Source of the DNA: a virus
Strand: one strand, 5' to 3'
DNA: 46,159 nt
Virus genome (UHGV): UHGV-1375912
The position numbers and the translations under genes were made by a program. Every line of letters starts with the position of its first letter. Positions within the stretch are counted from its first letter, which is position 1. This document shows, one piece after another, positions 3,393-10,930 of the stretch. The notes beneath the pieces were generated by a model, which saw nothing but the letters and a program-made list of their open reading frames with translations, was not told the DNA's origin and ran no database searches.

Positions 3393-3704
3393 TTAGTCGC
3401 CGTGATAACGGCGTGCTGCCCATTCTGGATAGGCAGGGTTGGTATCTCTGACCGGAACCTCATGCTTACTGTGCCGGTTGCGCTCAATCGCTTCCTGATG
3501 CTCGACGTACTTCGTCAGACGCCGCTCCGTGGCCTCCTGCACCCATTCCTTTGTCTGGTCAGTGGTCCGTACTGATAGCGACGCCCTCACGCCTTTCTTC
3601 GCCAAAATCTGCTGCTGTGCGTCCTGCATCGCTAACATCCATCTGCGCTGTGATTCCGTTTCATCAGGGCGTGCAGAGTCCGCCGAAGGTTCGGTGATGG
3701 TCAT
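3393..3704 (-). CDS. Hypothetical phage protein.
   Basis: 103-aa ORF. Confidence 0.45.
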   Translation of the reverse strand: MTITEPSADSARPDETESQRRWMLAMQDAQQQILAKKGVRASLSVRTTDQTKEWVQEATERRLTKYVEHQEAIERNRHSKHEVPVRDTNPAYPEWAARRYHGD

Positions 3705-3726
3705 GAGGGTGCCTTATTGGTGGGTG

Positions 3727-4320
3727 TTAGAAGGGGGTAAAGCCTGAATCTTCTTGCTGAGGGTAGTTGCCATAATCATTGGCTTGCTGGCCGCCACCTT
3801 TCTTGCGCTCATCCTTGTCTTTCAGGCCGGACACCATGCGATCAACCGCCTCTGCGTTCTTGCCTTCAGACTTCTCCAGAAGCGTCTGACGGGTCTGAGC
3901 AATGAATGGCAGGCGAATCTCCAGACCGTACGTATCTGAGCCGTCATTTTTGCTGCGAAGGACTTTCTGGAGCACCAGGCCGACTTTCTTCCCTGCAAAT
4001 TCAGGCGCCACGAATGTCTTCGCGTCCTTCATCTGATTGGTTAACTGGCTCACACCGGCGCAACCCATGATTGCATGCACCATGTTGACGCCGAACGTGT
4101 TCTCACTGCCGTCCTTTTTGGAAACGTAAACACTGAGGTACTGAACCTTTCGCCCATCGTCTGCCTCGCCTGAGAACTCGATAGCCTTAGCGCCACCTTG
4201 AGAGGTGGTCAGCGCCGCCTCAGTGATAGTCAGAACGTATGCGCCTGACTCGTTGATGAAACCGCCTTGCCCGGCGGTTAATGCTGCTTCGTGGTTGTAG
4301 GTGAAAATCACATTACTCAT
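3727..4320 (-). CDS. Putative ssDNA-binding (SSB-like/DUF669-type) partner of Sak4. Acidic C-terminal tail ending FTPF.
   Basis: The gene lies directly downstream of the Sak4-like ATPase with a 4-nt overlap. The C-terminal acidic tail, ...QQEDSGFTPF, is reminiscent of SSB DDDIPF. Confidence 0.45.
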   Translation of the reverse strand: MSNVIFTYNHEAALTAGQGGFINESGAYVLTITEAALTTSQGGAKAIEFSGEADDGRKVQYLSVYVSKKDGSENTFGVNMVHAIMGCAGVSQLTNQMKDAKTFVAPEFAGKKVGLVLQKVLRSKNDGSDTYGLEIRLPFIAQTRQTLLEKSEGKNAEAVDRMVSGLKDKDERKKGGGQQANDYGNYPQQEDSGFTPF

Positions 4321-6349: not shown

Positions 6350-6862
6350 TCATGGTTTGCGGGGGTATTTATGAAATTCACGAACGAACTCACCGTGATG
6401 AAGCTTTGCTGCTTCTATGTATTTCTGGTGAGCTTCTTCCGGGGTTTTATAGGTCCCCAGGTGTATCCTCTTGCCATTTACTCTAATACTGGCTTGCCAC
6501 TTTCCAGTAGATCGATGAGCACACACACCAGGAAACCCTGAACTGTTATCCTTTCTAACCTTTCGATTACACATATTTTGCTGATGTGTTGAAGGCCGAA
6601 GGTTTTGAATTCGATTGTCCGATGGATCGCCATTTATGTGGTCGATGAATTGTGGAACCTCACCTCCATGATGAATGATCCATGCCAGCCTATGCCCTTT
6701 AAATATCCTCCCTCCAACCTTGACAACTAAGTACCCAAGTTTGTCCGTATGCCCTGCGATTTGGCCTGCTTTCTTTCCTCCCCTTATGTCTTTTTTCCAT
6801 GTTAATAGCCCCGAATAAGGGTCGTAATTTAGAGCTTCAATTACTTCATGAATTACAGACAT
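6350..6862 (-). CDS. HNH homing endonuclease with a C-terminal AP2-type DNA-binding domain.
   Basis: HNH motif IDHINGDPSDNRIQNLRPSTHQQN. AP2-like segment GVCAHRSTGKWQASIRVNGKRIHLGTYKTPEEA. Local GC is low. Confidence 0.75.
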   Translation of the reverse strand: MSVIHEVIEALNYDPYSGLLTWKKDIRGGKKAGQIAGHTDKLGYLVVKVGGRIFKGHRLAWIIHHGGEVPQFIDHINGDPSDNRIQNLRPSTHQQNMCNRKVRKDNSSGFPGVCAHRSTGKWQASIRVNGKRIHLGTYKTPEEAHQKYIEAAKLHHGEFVREFHKYPRKP

Positions 6863-8095: not shown

Positions 8096-8422
8096 TCAAA
8101 TGAGTGGAATGCTCTTTCCGCGCATCTTCTGCACTGCGTGAATCTGACGACCAGCTTCATTGCTGACCTTCTGGTATTTGGTGCTGATGCGGTGCTCAAC
8201 GTATGCGGCTGCACCTGCCAGAATCTGCTTGTGATACTCCGTATCTGTTTCAACTGCCTTGACTACGCGGTCAGCTGCTGGGCGTTTGCACTGCAACACA
8301 ACGCGACTTGGAGTAGGTCGATGCAACACTTCAGCGCTAACGCTGGCTTCACTCTGAAGGTGAGCACGACGTTCACGACGACGACCTGAAGCTGAACCGG
8401 AGAATTGAGTTCTGCGTGTCAT
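8096..8422 (-). CDS. N: N-like transcription antitermination protein. First gene of the PL operon.
   Basis: 108 aa. The N-terminal arginine-rich motif MTRRTQFSGSASGRRRERRAH matches the lambda N ARM (RRRERRA). Strong CAGGAGG RBS. It lies downstream of OL and the candidate nutL. Confidence 0.65.
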   Translation of the reverse strand: MTRRTQFSGSASGRRRERRAHLQSEASVSAEVLHRPTPSRVVLQCKRPAADRVVKAVETDTEYHKQILAGAAAYVEHRISTKYQKVSNEAGRQIHAVQKMRGKSIPLI

Positions 8423-8489
8423 AGATACCTCCTGAGTAAATTTTGGCGATGGTACTTATCCATCCCAAAACTCACGCTTTGGTACTAAC

Positions 8490-8536
8490 TGGCTTTTCAG
8501 CCACGTAGGTGATCCGTCACCGTTGTTAAAAGAGCC
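8490..8536 (-). promoter_or_regulatory. Candidate nutL. Read on the minus-strand transcript: boxA-like GCTCTTTTAACAA, a spacer hairpin, CUACG, then a boxB-like hairpin UGGCU-GAAA-AGCCA.
   Basis: The architecture and the purine GAAA loop mirror nutR at 10943-10987. It lies between PL and N. Confidence 0.5.
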
Positions 8537-8583
8537 TGCTGTCCGTTTCGTACTGCGCCAGCTTCCTGCTGATGGAATAATAT

Positions 8584-8649
8584 TCACATATTGTGATTTA
8601 TTGGTCAATCACGATTTGTGTATAAATTCCCCCTTACACGTTATGTGTA
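8584..8649. promoter_or_regulatory. OL operator cluster with three TCACA-N3-5-TGTGA-type palindromes (TCACATATTGTGA, TCACGATTTGTG, TACACGTTATGTGTA). A PL-type promoter (TTGACC -35) is on the minus strand.
   Basis: The palindromes overlap a TTGACC-17 nt-GAATAT promoter reading toward N. The same half-sites occur at OR. Confidence 0.45.
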
Positions 8650-8689
8650 TGATTTTGGTGTGAATTTATTTTTCTTGGTGATTTGCAGG

Positions 8690-8757
8690 CACAAAAAAGC
8701 CCGCTCAGTGGCGGGCTATTCGTGAGGCGGGTATGAAAAACCCGGCGCGGTGGCCGG
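8690..8757 (-). terminator. Tandem rho-independent terminators (AGCCCGC-TCAGTG-GCGGGCT plus U6; CCGGC-GCGGTG-GCCGG plus U5) downstream of the 8768-9715 moron gene.
   Basis: Two GC hairpins are each followed by a minus-strand T-run. The second hairpin recurs at 44763-44784. Confidence 0.55.
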
Positions 8758-8767
8758 ATGAAATTCT

Positions 8768-9715
8768 TTATTCTGTTACGTCTGATGCATCAAGATCTGC
8801 TCCCTTCAGAACCGGATGAACCCGTTCTAGCAGCTCAATAAATTCATCATAATTATCACAAACCTTCATTAAGGTTACGATGCCAGCAAATCTTTTTTGA
8901 AGCATTTCATTGCCAACACCTTCGGAAAGGAACTGGTGCATTTTTGCACCTTGTTTATTGGCCCTTGCCCGCTCCTCTTTCAGTATTGCCTTGAGATCCG
9001 GAGCCATACGGTCATAGGTGATATTGTTCACTAAATGGCCGAAATATTGGGGCTTTCGCATGTTGGCTTTAAAAGGAACCCCGCGCAGGCGACATAATTC
9101 CTCGAAAAACTCTGGTGGATAGACTCTGACCCAAGGGCGCATCTCTTTAGCAATAAATTGCTCAAGTAACTTGGCAAGCTCATCGCGCTCACGCTCTTTT
9201 TGATAGCCAGTTGCTTCATCTACAAGCGCTACCGCGCCAACACGAGCTAATGCCTTATAAAGCGCCTCTGCTTTTCTAGCCGTGTTGAGATGGTGCCTTT
9301 GTTTTAATGCTCCATCTTTTTCTGCTGATAACCAAACCTCGCATAGCTCAGGAAGAAGAGTGGCATCTAATCCATATGCAGCACCTACACCAGAAGTATT
9401 TTTGAAAACGATAGGCTCAGAAATAGCGTCTCGCAGCTCATCAGTAATGTAAGGTTGCAATTCTGCAGCCTGCAAAACATATGGAAGCTGACCAGCCTCG
9501 CCACCAGGAACCCATCTCGGCATTTTGGAGCCTACAGATACACCAAATGTCTCAGCAAGCCCGTTATTACCCTGCATTGATACAACGCGCCTGCCATCAG
9601 GCAGAACGGCACATGAAACCCCTGTCGACATTAATCCTGTGTGAGTTGGTTTTGGTGCAGATCTCACAGCGGCTGAGACTGCTGCGGCCTTTACTGCTCT
9701 TTTTTTAGGGTCCAT
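8768..9715 (-). CDS. Moron protein of unknown function (315 aa) in the rexAB / sieB position between OL and cI.
   Basis: It lies between PL/OL and the repressor. It has its own AT-rich promoter region (9720-9930) and a double terminator. GC is slightly reduced. Confidence 0.65.
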   Translation of the reverse strand: MDPKKRAVKAAAVSAAVRSAPKPTHTGLMSTGVSCAVLPDGRRVVSMQGNNGLAETFGVSVGSKMPRWVPGGEAGQLPYVLQAAELQPYITDELRDAISEPIVFKNTSGVGAAYGLDATLLPELCEVWLSAEKDGALKQRHHLNTARKAEALYKALARVGAVALVDEATGYQKERERDELAKLLEQFIAKEMRPWVRVYPPEFFEELCRLRGVPFKANMRKPQYFGHLVNNITYDRMAPDLKAILKEERARANKQGAKMHQFLSEGVGNEMLQKRFAGIVTLMKVCDNYDEFIELLERVHPVLKGADLDASDVTE

Positions 9716-9926
9716 TTCGATGCCTCACTTATGGGTGTGGCATTAATTTAGCTAATTAAAAATAAGCTGTAAATAGTAGCTAAATTGTATTTTAGCTAAG
9801 ATATCTATCGTTTCTCATAACTAACTGATACTACTGAAATAATATTTTTTATGGATTTAGTAAAATATCAAATTAGCATCAATAAAGCAGCTTAGAAACG
9901 GTTAGCTAATGGATTGGATCATTCGC

Positions 9927-9952
9927 ATAAAAAAGGCCGCATTTCTGCGGCC
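9927..9952 (-). terminator. Terminator hairpin GGCCGCA-TTTC-TGCGGCC plus U6 immediately after the cI stop codon.
   Basis: The minus strand reads GGCCGCAGAAATGCGGCCTTTTTTATG, 5 nt after the stop. Confidence 0.55.
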
Positions 9953-9956
9953 TCTT

Positions 9957-10604
9957 TCACCCAAACGTCTCTTCCGGCCACTGAGCCTTCACCACCTTCC
10001 CAATGATGCGGCAGCTGTGATCGCAATCCAGCACCCTATAAGCCGGATTAAGAGGCACCAGATAGCTAACGCCGCCATCTTTCTCATACTTCTTGAAGGT
10101 CACCTCAGAATCGCCATTTGCTGAGGCAACGCAGAAATCGCCTGTCTCAACATCCTCAGCCGGATCAACCAATATGAGCATACCCTCCGGGAAGCTCGGG
10201 CGAACACCCTGAGGGGCTGTCATAGAATGACCCTTTACCTCAAGCCAGAAGGCGTTCTCGCTTGCTTTCTTGGTTGTCGCCACCCATGACTTTGCATCGC
10301 TCGCGGTATAGCTTCCAACTTCTGAAAAAGGCCCTGCTTGGACAGAGGCGAACAATGGGTATTCATACTGCTTGAAAACAGAGTCGGCCTCATCACCAAA
10401 CATGATCATAGCTGGTGATACCCCAAGGGCAGAACCAAGGATTACCGCGTCGTCAGCACTTACCTTACGTGTGCCTAACTCATAATTACCCAGGCGAGAC
10501 GGAGCAGCCCAACCGCAAAGTTTGGCTAGCTGTACTTGGCTAAGTCCTTTTGCTTCACGCAGGGACTTGATCCTTTCCCCGATTAATTCATGCATTGTTT
10601 TCAT
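9957..10604 (-). CDS. cI: CI-type prophage repressor: N-terminal XRE HTH plus C-terminal S24 (LexA-like) autopeptidase domain.
   Basis: The C-terminal half is near-collinear with lambda cI (GHSMTAPQG...[13 protein letters not shown]...GDFC...FKK...PLNP...GKV...WPEETFG), with the Ser/Lys dyad retained. It is divergent from cro across an operator region. Confidence 0.9.
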
Positions 10605-10711
10605 CCAGTAAATTTACCACAGTTCGTGATTGCACTCCGTACACGAATTGAGGTTGACTGTTAATCACATTTTGTGTGTAATGGTGCTGTGTTTAATGTT
10701 AGGAGGCTGCA
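10605..10711. promoter_or_regulatory. OR region. PR is TTGACT (10654-59), 17 nt, TGTAAT (10677-82), driving cro. An operator-like TCACATTTTGTG sits between -35 and -10. A PRM-type promoter for cI is presumed on the opposite strand.
   Basis: Promoter hexamers with 17-nt spacing. Half-sites are shared with OL. Confidence 0.5.
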
Positions 10712-10930
10712 ATGAACAACATTGCTCAGCAGCGAAAGAAAATCGGAGTTTCGCAAGCTGTCTTGGCTTCAGCTATTGGTTGGGGTCAATCCCGTATCGC
10801 CAACTATGAACTGAACATCCGTACTCCAAGCTTAAATGACTGCCGAGCAATCATTGATGGCTTAAAAAAATTGGGCTGTAAATGCTCGTTGGATGAAGTC
10901 TTCCCACCGTCCAAAGATAAAGCAGCTTAA
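10712..10930 (+). CDS. cro: Cro-like HTH (XRE family) regulator.
   Basis: 72 aa. HTH segment GVSQAVLASAIGWGQSRIANYE. Divergent from cI. Confidence 0.7.
   Translation: MNNIAQQRKKIGVSQAVLASAIGWGQSRIANYELNIRTPSLNDCRAIIDGLKKLGCKCSLDEVFPPSKDKAA

Follow-up and report, generated by a model that had tools for sequence, protein, structure and literature searches.

A P63C-family gene with a candidate promoter and operator-like boxes of its own as a putative moron in the cI-PL slot of a lambdoid prophage

The slot between the repressor gene cI and the leftward promoter PL (the cI-N/PL slot) has already given RexAB, Nun, and BstA. Nun of phage HK022 is an exclusion function that is expressed in the lysogen from this same place. 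The slot is likewise the known home of RexAB and of BstA, the DNA-associated abortive-infection protein of Salmonella prophage BTP1, which comes with a DNA element called aba (PMC8585504). Here, we describe the occupant of the slot in UHGV virus genome UHGV-1375912, a stretch of 46,159 nucleotides that we refer to as the window. This occupant, an open reading frame (ORF) of 315 amino acids (aa) on the minus strand at 8768-9715, is a full-length member of a large, named, and uncharacterized protein family, P63C/PHROG 2384. We read it as an autonomous one-gene accessory cassette (moron) encoding an autoregulated DNA-binding protein that is possibly an exclusion factor, a package to which, taken as a whole, we assign a little less than an even chance. 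P63C is a further, very widespread, and strongly conserved cargo of the slot and, annotated so far just as "P63C domain-containing protein," a candidate for a new lysogen-expressed function.

The layout of the locus agrees with an earlier, sequence-only reading of the window, which had placed the 315-aa ORF between OL/PL and the repressor. The gene (ATG start; ribosome-binding site GAGG at 9723-9726) is indeed found behind cI (9957-10604, minus strand; HTH_3 and Peptidase_S24 in the domain search) and ahead of the OL/PL region (8559-8673, minus strand), which is homologous to OL/PL of the related loci L004, L006, and L007. This is the rexAB position, upstream of PL. The PL-like promoter (TTGACC-18-AATATT at 8608-8579, minus strand, from a consensus scan) is found past the 3' end of the ORF and directs transcription further away from it, which excludes the gene from the PL transcript; membership in this transcript had been named by the earlier reading among the outcomes that would speak against its view. 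On its other side, the predicted cI terminator was confirmed directly after the cI stop codon at 9956-9929 (minus strand; AAAGAGGCCGC-AGAAAT-GCGGCC-TTTTTT). This hairpin, with its GGCCGC stem and T6 tract, is not listed by a simple terminator scan and was recognized with RNAfold, which gives it -28.1 kcal/mol. The hairpin after cI (GGTCGCAGAAATGCGGCC-T) also precedes the P63C genes of three subfamilies, namely, those in our alignment A1, in Klebsiella (L015/L016), and in ST104. The cI terminator is predicted to uncouple the cassette from the PRM/PRE transcripts and, given its strength and the direction of PL, no phage-controlled promoter reads into the gene.

Downstream, the two tandem intrinsic terminators that had been proposed were both recovered by terminator scan and RNAfold, and they differ in character. 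The first, T1 (CCGGCC-ACCGCG-CCGGG followed by T5, or CCCGGCCACCGnGCCGGG-T5; 8759-8735, hairpin 8759-8740, minus strand), is kept just past the stop codon of the P63C genes of L003-L010, L015, and L019, which represent two subfamilies. It is also present 3' of bstA in phage BTP1 (L103, about 4075-4105). The shared form, CCCGGCCAC(C/A)GCGCCGGG with its GnGCCGGG half and a T-run, closes the slot for P63C or BstA cargo alike, which makes T1 a feature of the slot, similar to a t_imm terminator. Homology of the window to its relatives stops at T1 (8736/8737), and T1 looks like a conserved boundary of the t_imm type at which cargo is exchanged. Conserved cassette boundaries of this kind explain mosaic exchange at the immunity region. 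The second terminator, T2 (AGCCCGC-CACTGA-GCGGGCT followed by T6; 8717-8692, hairpin 8717-8698, minus strand), is particular to the window, falls outside the conserved cassette, and is absent from L004-L008, which carry at its place an ORF of 65 to 69 aa on the opposite, convergent strand.

The spacer between the cI terminator and the gene (9716-9928, 213 bp) is the candidate control region. At 29% GC, compared to 51% for the window, it represents the lowest-GC 200 bp in all 46 kb, as expected from the very AT-rich region reported ahead of the ORF, and with a coding sequence of 46.5% GC, slightly below the 51% of the phage, only the control region is compositionally aberrant. The motif TAGCTAA had been noted three times at 9740-9810. 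These three copies are real (9749, 9777, and 9793), but a fourth copy at 9903 had been overlooked, and three of the four are part of a perfect 8-bp palindrome, TTAGCTAA. Rather than being a decoration of an AT-rich promoter, as they were first treated, the motifs are the most informative feature of the locus, behaving as conserved, operator-like boxes. TAGCTA is present in four copies in the 213 bp against 0.07 expected from composition, and none of 200,000 shuffles reached four. Elsewhere in the 46-kb prophage, it occurs at only four other sites, and this lack of enrichment leaves no evident phage regulon.

The boxes form two clusters. The distal cluster (9873-9909), beside the cI terminator and about 110 bp above the proximal one, contains a perfect box, D1 (TTAGCTAA, 9902-9909), and two degenerate boxes centered on AGCT/TGCT (9888-9895 and 9873-9880) at a spacing of 14 to 15 bp, all in columns that are conserved in alignment A1. 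The proximal cluster (9748-9799), with a spacing of 13 to 16 bp, is composed of P3 (TTAGCTAA, 9792-9799), P2 (TAGCTA, 9777-9782), a degenerate box (ACAGCTTA, 9763-9770), and P1 (TTAGCTAA, 9748-9755). A consensus scan predicts a sigma-70 promoter, the best conserved one of the spacer, in the midst of the proximal cluster at 9745-9773 (minus strand), with a -35 element TTTACA (9773-9768), a 17-bp spacer, and a -10 element TAAATT (9750-9745). P1 overlaps the -10 element, the degenerate box overlaps the -35 element, P2 abuts the latter, and further boxes are located just upstream. At the homologous place, the Providencia locus L020 carries a promoter match of 10/12 (TTGACG-17-TAGAAT) with an overlapping box, and the same arrangement can be read from alignment A1 in L009 and L005. 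A promoter read by eye in a Methylomicrobium locus failed the scan criteria and was dropped, which limits our promoter claims to the window's subfamily.

The positions of the boxes relative to the ATG appear to be constrained. They are found at -193, -83, -67, and -39 in the window; at -195 and -179 (two perfect boxes, equivalent in position to the distal cluster of the window), -84, and -68, with AGCTA at -54 and -38, in Yersinia (L009); and at -185, -74, -58, and -29 in Providencia (L020), where the protein is only 61% identical. Where the cassette does not follow cI, the boxes are at -69/-40 and -68/-39. Thus, across Yersinia, Providencia, Symbiopectobacterium, and Enterobacter (L009, L020, L019, and L003), the positions have been kept despite saturation of synonymous sites, and in alignment A1 the boxes stand out as islands of conservation within a diverged spacer.

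The protein, which had been considered unassignable to a known family, was readily placed by the profile search. Residues 183-272 match the Pfam P63C domain (PF10546) over profile positions 1-93 of 93 (E value 4.9e-22; 78.8 bits against a cutoff of 26.1), as had been suspected in the sequence-only reading, and the whole protein (aa 4-306) matches PHROG 2384, described as "unknown function," with an E value of 2.7e-100 and with the N-terminal module and P63C in the same order. This full-length architecture of 315 to 350 aa constitutes a separate, very large family that is found in more than 573 species genomes. The protein is soluble, with a pI of 8.2 and no transmembrane segment (maximal Kyte-Doolittle value over 19 residues, 0.89). 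Its N-terminal arm is very basic, and residues 136-272 are basic as well. The P63C domain (codons at 8900-9169, minus strand) is all-helical and basic in an AF2 model. The invariant motif V165-D-E-A-T-G170 (codons at 9206-9223, minus strand) emerged from a 90-sequence alignment (A2) and from a 12-sequence cross-phylum alignment (A3). It is part of LVDEATGYQ (aa 164-172, with columns D166 to G170 invariant), which falls outside the Pfam boundaries, where the long helix of the N-terminal module ends. R175, R209, Y234, and R236 are further conserved residues in A2. With a dN/dS of about 0.02 relative to orthologues, at saturated synonymous sites, the gene must be functional and under strong purifying selection.

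The domain name derives from the Mx8 protein p63, in which P63C is fused behind a Bro-N DNA-binding domain. The match between the two P63C domains (residues 127-220 in Mx8 p63) is secure, with an hhalign probability of 99.5%, and the modular design of an N-terminal module followed by P63C is shared, as it is with proteins of the Bro-N, KilA-N, ANT/KilAC, and Roi kind; Bro, Ant, or Roi genes adjoin P63C in some loci. However, the N-terminal 180 aa of the window protein, which carry LVDEATGYQ, are a different module: Bro-N was rejected for it (hhalign probability, 0.6%), and neither Bro-N nor KilA-N homology was found at the N terminus. DrmE_C (PF24957), the C-terminal domain of DISARM DrmE, was likewise dropped as a candidate, being weakly matched in 5 of 90 members (best E value, 6.8e-4) and in none of 10 others scanned singly. 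NCBIfam gave no match for the 315-aa protein, the best match in a PDB sequence search was not below an E value of 0.6, leaving the family without a solved structure, and a BFVD search returned P63C relatives only. The best fold matches, weak as they are, are all DNA-binding domains of the winged-helix or APSES type. Taken together, the basic regions, the Bro-N fusion in Mx8 p63, and the fold matches make nucleic acid binding by the protein plausible.

What the protein may bind is suggested by a comparison of box types across the family. In ST104, the spacer contains ATGCAAGCA and its complement three times, whereas 933W and members of the Klebsiella subfamily have TGCACG/CGTGCA repeats in this position. 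In a sample of 80 loci, limited to a single genome of each species, the density of TGCAAGCA/TGCTTGCA is 9.0 copies per kb in a 130-bp promoter window versus 0.039 elsewhere, an enrichment of about 230-fold. At least two exact copies are present in 30 of the 80 loci, and many further loci contain one-letter variants. The hosts of the TGCAAGCA loci include Alpha-, Beta-, and Gammaproteobacteria, Actinobacteria, Chlamydiae, Verrucomicrobia, and Bdellovibrionota. The box class tracks the protein tree, not the host, and all three classes are found within the Enterobacterales. Since the P63C gene is the sole gene common to all box contexts, its product is the simplest candidate for the factor that binds the boxes. 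The cI repressor was considered as the binding factor and rejected, since an identical cassette is found behind different cI types and also without cI. Most likely, the P63C protein binds the boxes of its own promoter as a dimer on the palindrome and represses itself. To our literature search, which found no paper on P63C function, the box sequences, or IS1 passenger genes, this pairing of boxes and protein across phyla is new.

On this basis, we infer fairly strongly that a soluble, basic, two-module P63C protein recognizes the palindromic TTAGCTAA boxes. Binding at the boxes of the -10 and -35 elements would repress its own promoter, possibly by means of a loop between the two clusters. Such autorepression would hold the protein at a low, fixed amount in the lysogen as well as in lytic growth, whatever the regulatory state of the phage. 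The uncoupling of the gene from the highly transcribed cI, unlike the arrangement of rexAB or bstA, suggests that dosage matters.

The distribution of the cassette is that of an exchangeable cargo. The closest proteins, which are 99 to 100% identical, are from Pantoea, and further close relatives of the cassette are found in Enterobacter, Klebsiella, Yersinia, and others; megablast against complete Escherichia coli genomes gave no match for the cassette. The host of the lambdoid prophage is probably Pantoea. The gene for a 94%-identical protein (P0008) follows cI genes of three lengths (212, 215, and 237 aa) at a distance of about 256 bp in prophages of the Enterobacter and Klebsiella type, and a further copy is located where no cI is present. 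The 237-aa repressor resembles the window cI in its C-terminal part only and, given its different N-terminal part, presumably confers another immunity type. In Klebsiella, a 48%-identical subfamily is found in this slot with three additional cI types, and homologues in ST104 (orf23) and in Erwinia phage Midgardsormr38 (ORF58) fill it as well. The rexAB/sieB-type architecture that had been proposed, an insulated unit with its own promoter, is seen behind different cI immunity types. Conversely, phages with a cI of about 79% nucleotide identity to that of the window carry other cargo in the slot (H0053 in VT1-Sakai; gp41 and gp42 in mEpX1). Traces of the exchange may also be visible. In ST104 (L002), the cI 3' end is duplicated in tandem ahead of the cassette at 3625-3677, and L003 has the P63C cassette without cI and yet with a remnant of the cI 3' end attached (about 3725-3755); both are likely scars of the homologous recombination that moved the cassette. 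In Yersinia mollaretii (CP139925.1), two prophages with different repressor/cro pairs (L009 and L010) encode an identical 315-aa P63C protein behind identical box arrays, which suggests recent exchange between coresident prophages.

These features are those of morons as defined by Juhala, Hendrix, and coworkers. In silico, the gene has its own promoter and terminators and is insulated from the flanking operons, and among related phages it appears to be replaced by other cargo or by none between the same flanking genes. The boundary sequences are conserved, and in ST104 and L003 a foreign cI 3'-end remnant travels along. Unlike in typical morons, the GC content of the coding sequence is close to that of the phage, and an elaborate operator array takes the place of a simple constitutive promoter.

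Among the described occupants of the slot, BstA is the closest counterpart. Like the P63C gene, bstA stands alone immediately after cI, in the cI-N slot of a lambdoid or P22-like prophage, encodes about 310 aa, and ends at terminator T1. Its product, too, is soluble, with two modules and putative DNA binding, and either gene has at its 5' end a DNA element that differs between variants, aba in the case of bstA and a clade-specific box array in that of P63C. The two differ in that bstA follows cI in BTP1 without a terminator and is thought to share the cI promoter, while the P63C cassette is cut off and has its own. Also, aba is one element of 63 bp with CCCGCC direct repeats, in contrast to the six or seven palindromic boxes in two clusters in the window. 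With lambda RexAB, the gene shares the location between cI and OL/PL, the end at a terminator before PL, and the nature of a cargo that varies among phages of one immunity type. However, it is one gene instead of two, it lacks a membrane protein such as RexB, it is not cotranscribed from PRM, and Pfam finds only P63C and neither of the RexA and RexB domains (PF15969 and PF15968). In L003, the P63C cassette coexists with rexA and rexB nearby. All things considered, the likely mode of action would most resemble that of BstA and aba.

Outside the enterobacterial slot, the family is found on a variety of mobile elements. Next to the repressor or integrase, and oriented alike, P63C genes are found in Streptococcus phage Javan515, satellite Javan441, Gordonia phage Petra, and Burkholderia phage DC1, and a homologue lies near the integrase of Pseudomonas phage Lodos. 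In 20 of the 80 one-per-species loci, the P63C gene is accompanied by IS1-type terminal inverted repeats (GGTAGTGnnTCAGTTTGAA), and all nine units that were checked, of 2.4 to 3.7 kb, are bounded by perfect 8-bp target site duplications (L052, 1902-4267; L049, 768-4205; L028, 890-4455; L025, 1068-4180; L068, 1424-4346; L087, 267-3681; L078, 990-4341; L018, 4047-6972; L071, 331-4007). Those units whose content was examined combine the P63C gene with a divergent IS1-like DDE transposase and a small convergent ORF that is conserved. The hosts of the transposon extend from Methylomicrobium to Planctomycetota and Peptococcaceae. This ORF (minus strand; L025, 3882-4115; L028, 3948-4181; L036, 3870-4145; L049, 3867-4157; L052, 3978-4226; L069, 3855-4157) shows 40 to 66% identity and ends in KGGKARAxxL(T/S)PExRxEIAxKAAxxRW. 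The KGGKARA motif also forms an N-terminal extension of most P63C proteins that the window's clade has lost. This link of P63C genes to a transposon is, as far as we can judge, new. Since P63C is central cargo of an IS1-like transposon in many phyla, its activity, whatever it may be, must be useful to mobile elements generally and not to phages alone. On plasmids, P63C is rare (20 of 72,556 records), but it does occur on plasmids of 6 to 8 kb. Examples of 5.8 and 8.5 kb are Acinetobacter larvae pRW2 (L106, gene at 21-1503) and Deinococcus ficus pDFI4 (L105, gene at 967-2013). On one of the two, P63C adjoins a gene annotated as an LlaMI-family restriction endonuclease.

Judged by its position, the P63C protein is a good candidate for the lysogenic-conversion or anti-phage function suggested in the earlier reading. 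It may be an exclusion or abortive-infection factor that serves the lysogen against incoming phages or mobile DNA in a BstA-like manner, and the box array might act as a cognate "self" DNA element during prophage replication, again judged by location. The slot position, the orientation relative to repressor or integrase across phyla, the occurrence as one-gene cargo on several elements, and the precedent of BstA make a function that benefits the lysogen our best single guess, with exclusion or abortive infection as its likeliest form, but it is a tentative guess that may well fail. A bolder version seems unlikely to us: P63C proteins could be a pan-bacterial, so far unrecognized class of self-regulated, sequence-specific DNA-binding effectors with clade-paired "self" boxes that provide single-gene defense against competing phages or other mobile DNA, following a logic like that of BstA and aba. 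Their carriers are temperate phages, where they reside in the module of repressor and integrase, as well as satellites, small plasmids, and a dedicated IS1-family transposon, and the logic would be either independent of BstA or too diverged from it to be recognized.

Several observations weigh against the picture of an autoregulated, BstA-like accessory cassette. The DNA binding on which it turns is deduced from sequence features, and the promoter and operator calls are consensus matches; promoter-like hits in such AT-rich DNA come close to the chance level (5 found versus 4.4 expected). About 40% of the family loci have none of the three exact box types, although many of these carry degenerate variants. 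PADLOC gave no match for the 315-aa protein at an E value of 1 or below, and our literature search retrieved no experimental datum of any kind on P63C proteins, while for BstA the abortive-infection phenotype is proven. Sequence similarity to BstA, whose family is marked by a KilA-N-like N-terminal and a BstA-like C-terminal domain, is not significant, with hhalign values of 3.3% against BstA alone and 8.4% against a profile of 51 BstA sequences, and at a probability of 3 to 8% and in view of the PADLOC result, we rejected homology as unproven. The low-confidence profile-profile alignment (probability, 8%) is collinear over 162 columns between aa 1-170 of the window protein and aa 22-203 of BstA and pairs the conserved GVLxDGxP hairpin, helices with GLA..G and RxLAR, and a PxxC helix whose Cys is near-invariant in either family. 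Chance or very distant homology could account for this match. Purifying selection as strong as that observed here, together with the presence on insertion sequence elements, would be atypical of defense genes engaged in an arms race. Finally, in Stx phages such as 933W, the homologue is found in the nin region adjoining roi, where it would be transcribed by PR in lytic growth, and a role in the development of the phage itself is thereby possible.

The last point leads to the proposal that P63C is a regulator of the Ant/Roi/Bro class, acting on DNA or on a repressor, that tunes lytic growth, induction, or replication of its own phage instead of protecting the lysogen. The domain was defined among shuffled "antirepressor-like" modules, Mx8 p63 with its Bro-N-P63C design is annotated as an antirepressor, and in Symbiopectobacterium a gene that is 94% identical to that of the window is flanked by a Bro-N gene and an AntA/ANT gene, much as the 933W homologue is a neighbor of roi. 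Yet P63C genes also travel on IS1-like transposons and small plasmids, elements that lack a lytic cycle, the window gene is insulated from PRM, PR, and PL, and the rest of the 46 kb offers few TAGCTA sites for such a regulator to act upon. We consider a developmental role rather unlikely. The transposon units would, in turn, fit a selfish maintenance or mobility factor that phages have captured, either an autorepressed, toxin-like addiction protein or a DNA-binding cofactor of transposition or partition for which the boxes would serve as the cis site. The IS1-type repeats, the target site duplications, and the conserved unit structure speak for it, multicopy palindromic arrays do resemble centromere-like or operator arrays, and tight autoregulation with insulation from cI would make sense if dosage matters. 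However, the boxes mark the promoter and start codon instead of the transposon ends, no partner gene such as an ATPase or antitoxin accompanies P63C in the enterobacterial cassettes, and the prophage, plasmid, and satellite copies have no adjoining transposase, such that this origin seems to us rather remote.

The boxes might also belong to the host, as sites of a regulator such as the anti-silencer SlyA/RovA on a promoter silenced by H-NS, which would turn the cassette into an environmentally regulated lysogenic-conversion gene instead of a self-regulated one. The spacer, being the most AT-rich DNA in the window, is a typical H-NS target, and the TTAGC and GCTAA half-sites resemble those of SlyA. 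The consensus of the SlyA/RovA type, however, is TTAGCAAGCTAA, a 12-bp site, while the half-sites of the 8-bp palindrome overlap. Moreover, the box type changes with the P63C clade within one host family, with three classes in the Enterobacterales, and TGCAAGCA is common to Proteobacteria, Actinobacteria, Chlamydiae, Verrucomicrobia, and Bdellovibrionota, a range over which no single host factor is expected. We regard host control of the boxes as a long shot. Binding of the boxes by the P63C protein itself, in contrast, can be addressed directly, as the clade-specific boxes are a testable handle consisting of a defined DNA ligand, a defined promoter, and the invariant DEATG motif. Even if P63C should prove a mere autoregulated regulator without a phenotype, this would supply an annotation rule for thousands of "hypothetical" genes, along with an account of the cassette boundaries.

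The small convergent ORFs between the P63C cassette and PL in relatives (minus strand; L004, 4985-5194; L005, 4978-5184; L007, 5084-5281; L010, 5002-5205; L015, 5042-5245) belong to at least two unrelated families, one being DUF2767, and are absent from the window; the idea that they encode a partner of P63C was therefore rejected. The immunity region is flanked upstream by cro (10712-10930, plus strand), and beyond PL lies an N-like antiterminator gene (8096-8422, minus strand; PF25694). An Rfam scan of 8400-10700 gave nothing close to threshold. Further along the PL operon, a 170-aa ORF (6350-6862, minus strand) reads by eye as an HNH endonuclease with an AP2-type DNA-binding domain and would be a homing-endonuclease-like insert; a Klebsiella relative carries a NUMOD4/HNH_3 gene in its PL operon.

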